Origin: a virus
Direction: 5' to 3' (one strand)
Virus genome (UHGV): UHGV-1756682
DNA length: 20,317 nt
A program made the translations under genes and the position numbers. How positions within the stretch are numbered: the stretch's first letter is position 1; each line of letters opens with the position of its first letter. The notes beneath the pieces are model-generated. The model had not been told where the DNA came from. It did no database searches and worked only from the letters and a program-made list of their open reading frames with translations. Below are positions 2,912-10,806 of this stretch, piece by piece.

Positions 2912-2976
2912 AGGATGCTCCTTCTGTTTGATTGCATAACGAAAACGCCTCGAGTGAAGCGTTATTGGTATGCATA

Positions 2977-3001
2977 TAAAAAAGCCCTCACACTGGAGGG
3001 C
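2977..3001 (-). terminator. rho-independent terminator on the leftward transcript
   Basis: Minus-strand sense reads GCCCTC-CAGTGT-GAGGGC followed by TTTTTTT: a 6-bp GC-rich stem (plus 2984-2989 and 2996-3001) and a 7-T tract (plus 2977-2983 as A). Confidence 0.7.
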
Positions 3002-3105
3002 AAAGAAGATTTCCAATAATCAGAACAAGTCGGCTCCTGTTTAGTTACGAGCGACATTGCTCCGTGTATTCACTCGTTGGAATGAATACACAGTGCTTCT
3101 CTGTG

Positions 3106-3303
3106 CTAAATAATTAAATCATATTCTGATTTTGTTAGTTTATAAGTACCTCCTCTGGTGTAATATGCAAATCTGTCTTTGCTTCCATCAGAATTGTATA
3201 CCCATCCACCAAATGGAAAGATAGTGTCTATTTCTCCAATATCTTTTTCACAACTAAATGTCTTTCCATTTTTAGTTGAATATGCCTTTCCAACTGTCAA
3301 CAT
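3106..3303 (-). CDS. small hypothetical protein (65 aa), AT-rich moron-like gene
   Basis: Track ORF; ATG 3301-3303 with AGAGG 5 nt upstream. DNA is visibly AT-richer than the flanks (not computed). Bracketed by two terminator-like hairpins. Confidence 0.5.
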   Translation of the reverse strand: MLTVGKAYSTKNGKTFSCEKDIGEIDTIFPFGGWVYNSDGSKDRFAYYTRGGTYKLTKSEYDLII

Positions 3304-3320
3304 CTTCGCCTCTGTTGTTT

Positions 3321-3350
3321 ATGACAAAAATGAAGGCCGACTATGCGGCC
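3321..3350 (-). terminator. tL1-like terminator candidate after the N-proximal gene
   Basis: Minus-strand sense GGCCG-CATAGT-CGGCC followed by TTCATTTTTGTCAT (stem plus 3335-3339 and 3346-3350). The stop codon of the 207-aa gene lies in the loop. Confidence 0.5.
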
Positions 3351-3964
3351 TCGGAAGGAAGTCCAATCATCTTATTCAAATCTTCTACCCGTAAAGCAGG
3401 AAGTGCTGTACTTGCTTTATCTGCTTCTTTTGGTAGCAACTCTTTGCTTTCAGGCCAAACTTCAATAAGTCGCTTAACTGTTGTGACTGAGTTCAAAGCA
3501 GCCCATACATTTGATTCGATATCCTTTTTCTTGGCTTCAAGTTTTTGTTGCAATGCGCAGATTTCATCAAACCTTTTTGTTATTTCGTGTTCTGCGTCAA
3601 ACATGCATTTATCTTTTTCTGGGGTGGGTAGCAATATATCTTCGCCGTTGCCGTCTTTCCCATATGAATACCAGCCAACCCTTCTGCCAGATACAGTCAG
3701 ATAAATTGAAGTAGAACGAACATCGCATGAGTAAAATGAACATCCCATCTTTTCAAGTTCTTCACTTATAGCTACTAACTTGGATGATAACTGATCCACT
3801 TCCTCAGTTTTCTTTTTCCCGCCAAACGCAACAACTCTGGCGTCAAGTGCAAGCTGATTCTTTAACTTTGTTACTTCTTCAAGTTCAATGAAAACCCCAG
3901 ACTTAATTAAAGCGTTACGAGCGATTTTCTCTTTCATTCTCGTAGTTAAGCGGATTGATGACAT
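3341..3964 (-). CDS. hypothetical protein (207 aa), first gene after N in the PL operon
   Basis: Track ORF 3341..4024; preferred start ATG 3962-3964 with GAGAGG 7 nt upstream. No TM segments seen and no family recognised. Confidence 0.6.
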   Translation of the reverse strand: MSSIRLTTRMKEKIARNALIKSGVFIELEEVTKLKNQLALDARVVAFGGKKKTEEVDQLSSKLVAISEELEKMGCSFYSCDVRSTSIYLTVSGRRVGWYSYGKDGNGEDILLPTPEKDKCMFDAEHEITKRFDEICALQQKLEAKKKDIESNVWAALNSVTTVKRLIEVWPESKELLPKEADKASTALPALRVEDLNKMIGLPSEAA

Positions 3965-9106: not shown

Positions 9107-9517
9107 ATGAAGCAAACAATCTTCCTCCGAACTAAGCAACAACAGCAATCCGCAATCAACGCCATCCTCGCAACACCACTCGATAAAGACAAGCCAGTCA
9201 CCATCCGCATTACTGACTACAAGCGCAACCTTGACCAGAACGCAAAATTTCACGCGATGCTGGCGGATATCGCACGTCAGGTTAAATGGTGCGATAAGTG
9301 GTTAAAACCAGAACAATGGAAGGTTTTGTTGATAAGCGGTCATGCAGTGGCTACAAAGCAGGAAGCTGATGTTTTGCCCGGGCTTGAAGGCGAATACGTC
9401 AACATTCGCGAAAGCAGCGCGCAGATGAGTGTGAAGCGTATGGCAAGTCTGATTGAGTACACGACAGCCTGGGCTATTGGTCAGGGTGTCAGATTTACCG
9501 ACAGGAGGTATGAATGA
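9107..9517 (+). CDS. ninB: NinB (Orf-family recombination mediator)
   Basis: [21 protein letters not shown]...[22 protein letters not shown] parallels lambda NinB (...RNRSLDQNRKLWACLGDVSRQVEW). Confidence 0.85.
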
Positions 9518-9690
9518 GGCGACAGCGACGAAGTTTCACCGACATCATCTGCGAAAACTGCAAATACCTTCCAACGAAACGCTCCAGAAATAAACGCAAG
9601 CCAATCCCAAAAGAATCTGACGTAGAAACCTTCAACTACACGGCTCACCTGTGGGATATCCGGTGGCTAAGACATCGTGCGAGGAAATGA
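9514..9690 (+). CDS. ninE: NinE-like small basic protein (58 aa)
   Basis: Hand-translated [64 protein letters not shown] 9514 overlaps the ninB stop; AGGAGG 5 nt upstream. Matches my recollection of lambda NinE. Not in track (<60 aa). Confidence 0.6.
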
Positions 9691-9692
9691 CG

Positions 9693-10637
9693 ATGACTGC
9701 GTATTACAACGAAATAGATCCGTATGCAGCGCAATGGCTGCGTAACTTAATTGACGCTGGAGAAATTGCCCCCGGTTATGTAGATGAAAGGAGTATTGAA
9801 GATGTCACACCAGGTGATTTGCGAGGATTTACCCAGCACCACTTTTTTGCAGGAATCGGAGTTTGGAGCTATGCACTTAGAAAAGCAGGATGGCCAGACA
9901 ACAAGAGTATCTGGACAGGAAGTTGCCCATGCCAACCTTTCAGCTCGGCAGGCAAAGGAAAAGGGGTTGATGACGAGCGGCACTTATGGCCGGCATTCTT
10001 CTGGCTTATTGAAAAATGCAATCCTGGCATCGTTATTGGCGAACAGGTTGCAAGCGCAGACGGCCTCGCTTGGCTCGACCTTGTACAAACTGACTTGGAA
10101 GGTGCGAACTACACCTCTGCAGGTACCGATATTTGCGCTGCGGGCTTCGGTTCTCCGCACATTAGGCAGCGATTGTATTGGGTGGCCTACTCCAACGACA
10201 AATATCAACTTTCAGCCAGAGACGCGCAGGGGAATTCAGAACCTATCTGGATGCGTGAGACTAGCGGGATGGCAAACTCCTTTAGCGAACGATGCAACAG
10301 GTTCAACGCATTGCTACAGCGGAAAAGACAAGAGCGGAACCCCAAGAATCTGCTTGAAACTTCCCGGGACGGTGAAGCTATGTACCCATTACCGGTTAAC
10401 GGCTTCTGGAGAGATGCAGACTGGCTTTACTGTAGAGATGAAAAATATCGTCCAGTTAGACCCGGCTCATTCCCGATGGTTAATGGCATTGCCAAAAGCT
10501 TGGGACGAGGCAAGTCCACACTGGGAAGAATGGCAAAGCGCAATCAAGATCAGCGAATTATTGGATATGGAAACGCAATCAATGCAGAAGTAGCAACGGC
10601 ATTCGTGAAAGTTTGTATGGAGGTTGTTAATGCTTAG
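9693..10637 (+). CDS. orphan DNA cytosine-5 methyltransferase
   Basis: Frame-0 translation carries C5-MTase motifs: I-like FFAGIGVWS, IV GSCPCQPFSSAG, VI-like GEQV, VIII HIRQRLYW, X GYGNAINAEVATAF. Start ATG 9693 (GAGGA 7 nt upstream); ATG 9687 overlapping the ninE stop is an alternative. No adjacent restriction endonuclease gene. Confidence 0.75.
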   Translation: MTAYYNEIDPYAAQWLRNLIDAGEIAPGYVDERSIEDVTPGDLRGFTQHHFFAGIGVWSYALRKAGWPDNKSIWTGSCPCQPFSSAGKGKGVDDERHLWPAFFWLIEKCNPGIVIGEQVASADGLAWLDLVQTDLEGANYTSAGTDICAAGFGSPHIRQRLYWVAYSNDKYQLSARDAQGNSEPIWMRETSGMANSFSERCNRFNALLQRKRQERNPKNLLETSRDGEAMYPLPVNGFWRDADWLYCRDEKYRPVRPGSFPMVNGIAKSLGRGKSTLGRMAKRNQDQRIIGYGNAINAEVATAFVKVCMEVVNA

Positions 10638-10806
10638 CCCATCCCAATCCATTCAATACCAGAAAGAAAGCGTCGAGCGGGCTTTAACGTGCGCTAACTG
10701 CGGTCAGAAGCTGCATGTGCTGGAAGTTCACGTGTGTGAGCACTGCTGCGCAGAACTGATGAGCGATCCGAATAGCTCAATGTACGAGGAAGAAGACGAT
10801 GAGTGA
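10630..10806 (+). CDS. ninF: NinF-like protein (58 aa, Cys-rich)
   Basis: MLSPSQSIQYQKESVERALTCANCGQKLHVLEVHVCEHCCAELMSD matches my recollection of lambda NinF. ATG 10630 with GGAGG 6 nt upstream. Confidence 0.7.
   Translation: MLSPSQSIQYQKESVERALTCANCGQKLHVLEVHVCEHCCAELMSDPNSSMYEEEDDE

Follow-up and report, generated by a model that had tools for sequence, protein, structure and literature searches.

The methyltransferase locus of a lambdoid prophage was found to contain two long reading frames on the same strand, one nested within the other. Both ORFs are conserved and under purifying selection, which forms a mosaic along the overlap, and the start of the inner ORF, beta, is conserved as well; an overlapping-gene reading of the locus is strongly supported. 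Together with the outer ORF, alpha, beta probably makes up a two-polypeptide phage C5-cytosine methyltransferase encoded by one DNA stretch in two frames, in which alpha would be the catalytic chain and beta would contribute target recognition and a motif-IX-like segment. In bacteria and phages, long genes that overlap on the same strand are seldom found and are frequently contested. The present overlap spans about 800 nt; the selection acting on each frame can be read from the sequence, and the non-overlapped flanks of the gene serve as internal controls.

Organization of the locus and its copies

The window, the whole stretch of 20,317 nucleotides that was analyzed, is a lambdoid prophage, and the methyltransferase locus lies in its nin region, where the neighboring genes encode NinB (9107-9517), NinE (9514-9690), and NinF (10630-10806). 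The alpha ORF (9693..10637, plus strand) encodes 314 amino acid residues, and frame 0 is open already from 9621. The alpha ATG at 9693 comes 2 nt after the NinE stop codon (TGA 9688-9690), and the NinF start (ATG 10630) is overlapped by the end of alpha (stop codon TAG 10635-10637). The methyltransferase gene is a tight insertion between ninE and ninF, which are themselves neighbors in many lambdoid phages. The beta ORF (9784..10593, plus strand; stop codon TAG 10591-10593) lies wholly within alpha in the +1 frame and encodes 269 residues from the ATG at 9784 or 263 residues from the ATG at 9802. In the +2 frame, stops occur all along, and the longest run between them is 48 codons. The first-pass annotation had reported two long overlapping same-strand frames, the inner one of 269 codons, with methyltransferase-like motifs in each; re-examination confirmed both frames, and the motif coordinates in both were all correct.

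A 100% identical copy was present in E. coli FDAARGOS_1256, where the annotation gives it as an intact 'DNA cytosine methyltransferase', the RefSeq name of alpha (WP_077635079.1); the PGAP annotation of this record contains alpha and omits beta. Copies with at least 99% identity, also annotated as intact, were found in ten more complete E. coli genomes (11 in total), and identical or near-identical copies occurred in five IMG/VR contigs. Under the match in the 11 E. coli genomes, no second CDS was listed except NinF. A search for plasmid copies linked to restriction-modification (R-M) systems found no restriction-enzyme feature among the features lying under any match, and the plasmid matches were annotated as 'DNA cytosine methyltransferase' or 'Uncharacterised protein' or were unannotated. 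The enzyme is a phage orphan with no R-M partner.

The appearance of methyltransferase-like motifs in two frames had led the first-pass annotation to suggest, as one option, paired compensating frameshifts in this copy; on such a reading it would be a pseudogene or a sequencing artefact. That first impression is the only point in favor of the suggestion, and its probability is negligible given the intact copies in the 11 E. coli genomes and the five contigs and the occurrence of the same two-frame layout in every homologue, including all those with 37-57% identity. A recent pair of compensating frameshifts was excluded by the intact E. coli copies and by the layout of the homologues.

Alpha is a catalytic core of the C5-methyltransferase family

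Alpha belongs to the C5-cytosine DNA methyltransferases (PF00145) by both its motifs and its Pfam match. PF00145 matched frame 0 at residues 73-200 (E 6e-14; 52.5 bits against a cut-off of 22), covering profile positions 64-196 of 324, and did not match the +1 frame; alpha also matched phrog_363 (7e-91). Motifs I, IV, VI, VIII, and X were represented on the plus strand by FFAGIGVW (9843-9866), SCPCQPFS (9921-9944), GEQV (from 10038), PHIRQRLYWVA (10155-10187), and GYGNAINAEVA (10563..10595), respectively, and the beta tail is unconstrained at the position of motif X. Across alpha homologues, catalytic motifs I (FxGxG), IV (PCQ), VI (ENV-like), VIII (QxRxR), and X (GNxI/V) were invariant. The reading of motif I as GIGVW instead of the canonical GIGG, remarked on in the first-pass annotation, is correct as a sequence, but it is a family trait and no defect of this copy, because GIGVW and GIGGW alternate among the homologues.

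A tblastn search with frame 0 gave single-piece full-length matches with 50-56% identity to many phage methyltransferases, which shows that the gene has no frameshift relative to its relatives. The conserved parts of alpha were motifs I-VIII and a C-terminal block, 'NGFWRDADWLxCRDGKWRPVEPGTFPL...RVGRLRxYGNAI'. Between motif VIII and this block lie about 100-130 hypervariable residues of low complexity, in which the alignment collapses. Alpha residues ~166-235 were 22% conserved, showed 6% synonymous changes, and had pLDDT values below 50. The AlphaFold2 model of alpha had a pLDDT of 49.2, with residues 170-294 below 50 and predicted to be disordered, and this low-confidence model superposed on M.HhaI and M.HaeIII only in the core (110-160 columns). 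No conserved target-recognition domain (TRD) or motif IX was found between motifs VIII and X in the frame of alpha. Since alpha is only 22% conserved and predicted to be disordered at 10180-10399, where the wobble pattern is that of the beta frame, it has no conserved recognition domain of its own.

In the epsilon15/PAT1-like group and in this copy, alpha carries an insertion of about 16 codons before motif X ('SLGRGKSTLGRMAKRNQDQRII'). Methyltransferases of Mycobacterium and Gordonia phages were also considered as comparators; they share only motifs IV-VIII with alpha and hence belong to other subfamilies and were uninformative.

The +1 frame is open and conserved across homologues

When frame 0 was shuffled among synonymous codons, a +1 ORF of 269 codons was reached in only 1 of 2000 trials, and for 7 of 10 loci the observed +1 length was reached in 0-4 of 2000 trials. 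GC-rich homologues were less extreme, with 296 of 2000 trials reaching the +1 length for locus L006. The number of +1 stops is limited by the alpha amino acid sequence alone, the shuffles giving only ~4 extra. The comparison was extended to 90 homologous loci, 10 of them from GenBank phages or genomes and 80 from IMG/VR contigs, with alpha identities of 37-100% and GC contents of 49-66%. In all 90 loci, the open run in the +1 frame spanned 216 codons or more (median 299), and the longest +2 open run had a median of 53 codons.

A tblastn search with the +1 translation found these phage genes again, now through their +1 frame, with 32-52% identity over ~240 residues and E values down to 3e-77. 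The hosts of these matches include Escherichia, Salmonella, Klebsiella, Erwinia, Edwardsiella, Vibrio, Pseudomonas, Xanthomonas, Burkholderia, and Rhodobacter. The +1 identity exceeded that of the synonymous-shuffle null by z = 18-23 and was also above that of the +2 frame. In a large protein collection, beta matched 2,744 called proteins; among the 120 matches listed, there was no Pfam domain, and the few that were named were called 'hypothetical' or 'uncharacterised'. A beta profile matched 16,070 representatives of 50%-identity clusters, with a Pfam domain in none of those scanned. Beta matched phrog_1008 and phrog_31772, and the PHROGs label of the beta families is 'DNA methyltransferase'. 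The first-pass annotation had held that full-length frame-0 alignment of homologues, combined with a +1 translation devoid of significant hits, would speak against its proposal. The homologues did align over their full length in frame 0, but the thousands of significant +1 matches are the opposite of the second part.

Conserved content of beta

The first conserved blocks of beta are 'ANLSARQAKE.GL.TSGTYG' and 'GSTLYKLTWK..TP....LRASV.RTS....GWPTPTA.D', followed by 'LAGWPTPTA.D..G' and then 'RLTASGEMLTGS.A.M..GGQLNPAHSRWLMGLP.EWD'. The corresponding elements on the plus strand of the window include GWPTPTT (10180-10200), AGWQTPLANDATG (10264-10302), and LDPAHSRWLMALPKAWDE (10456-10509). Insertions and deletions in beta comprise whole W-x-T-P modules, the number of which ranges from ~1 to 8 per protein and the order of which also varies. 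A segment of the form 'L-N-P-x4-W-L-M-G-x-P-x2-W' ('LNPAHSRWLMGLP..W') resembles motif IX and occurs at the position expected for it; it is a candidate motif IX by resemblance of pattern. The conserved core of beta as a whole is placed where the TRD and motif IX fall in a canonical gene. The beta tail reads 'SPHWEEWQSAIK...' in this copy and in the epsilon15/PAT1-like group, as against 'DDCAPT...SRK' in most homologues.

Searches for a known domain gave no link. Pfam and NCBIfam scans of beta and a comparison of the beta profile with PDB sequences yielded no match, and an hhalign comparison between the beta profile and E. coli Dcm gave a probability of 0.08, which is not significant. Pfam scans of a 0/+1/0 hybrid and of a mini construct joining motifs IX and X showed no gain over alpha alone. 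The AlphaFold2 model of beta had a mean pLDDT of 44.7 with an alignment of 30 sequences; this low value could reflect folding only in a complex, or just the shallow alignment. The models of alpha and beta are too uncertain for detailed structural conclusions.

These results bear on the possibility that beta is a real overprinted protein whose function is unrelated to methylation, such as regulation, anti-defence, or another kind of DNA binding, with alpha working or failing without it. Selection and ORF conservation establish no more than that selection acts on beta as a protein, none of the Pfam, PDB-profile, Dcm, and hybrid comparisons ties it statistically to a methyltransferase domain, and beta is not predicted to fold by itself. 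Nevertheless, alpha has no conserved segment between motif VIII and its C-terminal block and therefore needs a recognition module from elsewhere, and the beta core, with its motif-IX-like segment, occupies the canonical TRD/IX position. Moreover, every alpha homologue examined, from phages of Proteobacteria to those of Paenibacillus, contains beta, and M.EcoHK31I (described below) is a precedent for a nested beta linked to methylation. We consider an unrelated function unlikely, although it deserves some weight, and beta is probably the DNA-recognition partner of alpha.

Selection along the overlap

The share of changed codons that were synonymous was calculated in each frame from 272 locus pairs with 80-97% nucleotide identity. 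At 9784-9929, the shares for alpha and beta were 0.90 and 0.04, respectively, indicating selection on frame 0 only. Both frames were selected at 9930-10179 (0.49 and 0.34), whereas only the +1 frame was selected at 10180-10399 (0.06 and 0.53). Both were again selected at 10400-10511 (0.26 and 0.41). In the beta tail at 10512-10590 (0.46 and 0.29), both frames vary and alpha is better conserved, so that selection is mainly on frame 0. The gene is therefore a mosaic of segments selected for alpha only, both, beta only, both, and then mainly alpha. This per-segment pattern supports the frame switch near 10180 anticipated in the first-pass annotation and the renewed relevance of both frames after ~10400.

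Divergence at the 4-fold sites of alpha, compared among 466 locus pairs with 80-97% nucleotide identity, was 0.49 upstream and 0.54 downstream of beta, as against 0.22 and 0.21 within the overlap. The synonymous sites of alpha thus evolve more than 2-fold slower under the beta overlap; they are most conserved at 9787-9804. The drop begins at the Shine-Dalgarno (SD) sequence and ATG of beta, and divergence returns to the baseline after ~10510. The N-terminal leader of beta (approximately residues 8-49; 9805..9929, plus strand) is open and weakly constrained, with a 4-fold divergence of 0.37-0.39. In the first doubly constrained segment (9930..10179, plus strand), which contains alpha motifs IV-VIII, the divergence was 0.01-0.25, and beta reads 'ANLSARQAKE.GL.TSGTYG' and 'GSTLYKLTWK..TP....LRASV.RT'. 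The beta-only segment (10180..10399, plus strand) contains two W-x-T-P modules (GWPTPTT... and AGWQTPLANDATGSTHCYSGK...), and identity there was 22% for alpha and 34-39% for beta. The wobble pattern moves to the beta frame in this segment, with substitution rates of 0.21, 0.17, and 0.42 at beta codon positions 1, 2, and 3, respectively. In the second doubly constrained segment (10400..10511, plus strand), alpha reads 'NGFWRDADWLYCRDEKYRPVRPGSFPM' and beta reads 'RLTASGEM...QLDPAHSRWLMALPKAWDE', which includes the motif-IX-like element; identity was 67% for alpha and 61% for beta, and the 4-fold divergence was 0.02-0.06 at 10443-10502.

The first-pass annotation had also allowed for coincidence, which is excluded by the shuffling trials, the openness of all 90 loci, the z values, and the reduced 4-fold divergence in the overlap. 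A related explanation is that the +1 frame is untranslated and that its openness and conservation are by-products of constraints on alpha, such as composition and codon bias, or of a nucleic-acid element. The alpha amino acid sequence by itself does restrict +1 stops, long +1 ORFs are not rare in the shuffles of GC-rich L006, and the first 49 codons of beta show no constraint at the protein level. On the other hand, constraints on alpha cannot yield the pattern at 10180-10399, where alpha is free to vary and the wobble belongs to the +1 frame. The +1 identity also lies beyond that of the shuffle null and the +2 frame, the insertions and deletions follow the beta modules, and the two-frame architecture persists from 49% to 66% GC. 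We regard an untranslated +1 frame as extremely unlikely.

Start site of beta and the question of frameshifting

Two in-frame ATG codons are present near the beginning of beta: that at 9784 directly follows TAG 9781-9783 (TAGATG), and that at 9802 has a strong SD sequence. The putative internal start (9787..9804, plus strand) consists of the SD sequence AAAGGAG (9787-9793), an 8-nt spacer, and ATG 9802-9804. The codons GAA AGG AGT ATT GAA GAT GTC, encoding ...ERSIEDV in alpha, hold both elements; the ATG at 9802 is built from the alpha codons GAT GTC, and the SD sequence uses AGG. AGG is a rare arginine codon, and it is kept in enteric and Vibrio homologues. An ATG was present at this site in 77 of the 90 loci, with a GGAG-type SD sequence in 64. 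At 30-nt resolution, the 4-fold divergence of alpha was 0.14 at 9783-9812, as against 0.45-0.57 before it. These features point to translation of beta from its own internal start. Database gene calls of beta begin at 9802 (P0001, 263 aa).

Programmed frameshifting, with a shift out of frame 0 into +1 near 10180 and perhaps a return near 10520, would instead give a single canonical-looking methyltransferase with motifs I-VIII, the TRD, and motifs IX and X. The selected frame does pass from 0 to +1 near 10180, and in the window the hybrid would set the IX-like motif ~17 codons before motif X. In most homologues, however, the IX-like motif overlaps 'RVGRLRAYGNAI', so that almost no room would be left before motif X in the hybrid; the Pfam score of the hybrid was no better than that of alpha alone. 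Two shifts would be needed, and no X_XXY_YYZ slippery heptamer in the alpha register was found anywhere in the gene. In all loci, the +1 frame already stays open over ~130 codons upstream of the proposed switch, and frame 0 is open across the entire variable region. Beta has a conserved SD sequence and ATG, and its residues 50-132 are constrained. A frameshift gene is expected to have a conserved slippery site at the junction and no separate start for the second frame, and neither holds here. The absence of a slippery heptamer, the conserved start, and the tiny IX-X spacing make programmed frameshifting highly unlikely. The first-pass annotation had coupled it with an overprinted gene, and it is the latter that received strong support; the first-pass interpretation as a whole was partly supported.

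Comparison with known methyltransferases

The enzyme M.EcoHK31I was reportedly the subject of a study by Lee, Kam, and Shaw in 1995. It is a heterodimeric C5-methyltransferase with the target YGGCCR, the beta ORF of which sits wholly within the alpha gene but is read in another frame (PMC2836561, PMC3404938). Its alpha chain contains motifs I-VIII together with motif X as well as the predicted TRD, and its beta chain contains motif IX; activity depends on both chains, and it is kept when about 41 residues are removed from the N-terminus of beta (PMC2836561, PMC3404938). The likeness of the present locus to M.EcoHK31I, which is based on the published description and not on a sequence alignment, includes a second ORF fully nested on the same strand in another frame (90 of 90 loci here) and a large chain holding motifs I-VIII and X, with alpha lengths of 309 aa in M.EcoHK31I and 314 aa here. 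The ~41 dispensable residues of its beta also resemble the first ~49 unconstrained residues of beta here. In contrast, beta has 176 aa in M.EcoHK31I and 263-269 aa here, reaching ~500 aa in relatives, and consists here of a variable array of W-x-T-P modules. The TRD of M.EcoHK31I has been placed in alpha, whereas here only the beta frame is under selection across the variable region, and M.EcoHK31I belongs to an R-M pair, whereas the present enzyme is an orphan in the nin region of a lambdoid prophage.

M.AquI is a natural C5-methyltransferase split in the variable region into two polypeptides, both of which are needed (PMC3404938). Its small subunit holds motifs IX and X, whereas motif X (GYGNAI) stays in alpha here, and it is described as two polypeptides and not as nested ORFs (PMC3404938), unlike beta, which is nested over ~800 nt. 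The multispecific C5-methyltransferases of Bacillus phages (SPR, phi3T, and rho11s type) are orphans with several tandem recognition modules in the variable region (PMC12707154). The variable module number of beta is reminiscent of these enzymes, a likeness by description only, but they are single polypeptides in one frame, whereas two frames are used here. Alpha has its catalytic motifs in common with the canonical monomers M.HhaI, M.HaeIII, and Dcm (PF00145), and the core of M.HhaI and M.HaeIII can be superposed on its model; unlike these enzymes, it lacks a conserved TRD or motif IX within frame 0. The nested two-chain C5-methyltransferase is a known but obscure kind of enzyme, and in the present case selection across the variable region falls on the beta frame.

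Annotation of relatives

Both ORFs have been listed independently by the annotators of two phages. In phage K1ind2 they appear as 'C-specific methylase' and an embedded 'Mte8-like protein'; no functional information on 'Mte8' was found in the literature. In Paenibacillus phage Jacopo (L092:1249-2304), both are listed as 'DNA cytosine methyltransferase'. The Jacopo locus has the same nested layout, so the architecture extends to phages of Firmicutes; its alpha has the canonical motif I FSGIGG, and its beta ends with 'LNPDWVECLMGFPIGWTD', which is nearer to the textbook motif IX than the enterobacterial form is. Only the beta frame is annotated, and the catalytic alpha is omitted, in Xanthomonas phage PhiXhv-2 (L009:1186-1992; 'cytosine-specific methyltransferase') and Burkholderia phage vB_PL1 (L006:1384-2151; 'hypothetical protein'). 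A distant homologue in a metagenome contig (L093:1287-3593; ENA ERZ25074695 ctg336376) has an alpha frame open for 768 codons, which reads through an HNH-endonuclease-like ORF in another frame (2965-3441) inserted between the 'FWRPVE' block and motif X; its beta has 502 aa with 8 W-x-T-P modules. A literature search for nested phage methyltransferase ORFs returned nothing relevant beyond M.EcoHK31I and M.AquI, and no paper describing a widespread nested-methyltransferase architecture in phages was found.

Proposed two-chain enzyme and its implications

Considering that alpha has no conserved recognition segment, that the beta core lies at the TRD/IX position, and that M.EcoHK31I provides a precedent, we read the locus as an alpha/beta methyltransferase. 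In the proposed mechanism, alpha would be the catalytic core, in which a poorly conserved and probably disordered linker replaces the usual target-recognition domain. Beta would be made independently from the internal SD sequence and ATG at 9787-9804 and, judging from its sequence, may supply the missing small domain through its tandem W-x-T-P recognition-like modules and its motif-IX-like 'LNPAHSRWLMGLP..W' segment. Joined to alpha, it would form an active, sequence-reading enzyme that methylates the phage DNA, presumably for anti-restriction. We infer that beta is translated, that it binds alpha, that target recognition and motif IX reside in it, and that activity requires the two chains together.

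The locus belongs to a very large family, the second chain of which is largely unannotated. It is conceivable, though we put the chances at somewhat less than even, that these loci represent a very large and essentially unannotated class of phage C5-methyltransferases whose recognition domain is provided in trans from the +1 frame as a shuffled array of 1-8 W-x-T-P modules, which would make them anti-restriction methylases of modular build and perhaps of several specificities. With more than 16,000 clusters at 50% identity, and a Pfam domain in none of those scanned, beta would in that case rank with the largest and longest families of same-strand overlapping genes in prokaryotic viruses; M.EcoHK31I would be one long-known representative, and the placement of its TRD in alpha may need revision.

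In databases, beta is 'hypothetical' or missing, and some phage records annotate it instead of alpha. If beta is the recognition subunit, thousands of 'DNA cytosine methyltransferase' entries cover half an enzyme, and specificity tests with alpha alone would fail. The module array could then explain the evolution of new or multiple specificities, and the family would offer a natural platform for the engineering of split methyltransferases, as M.EcoHK31I already has.
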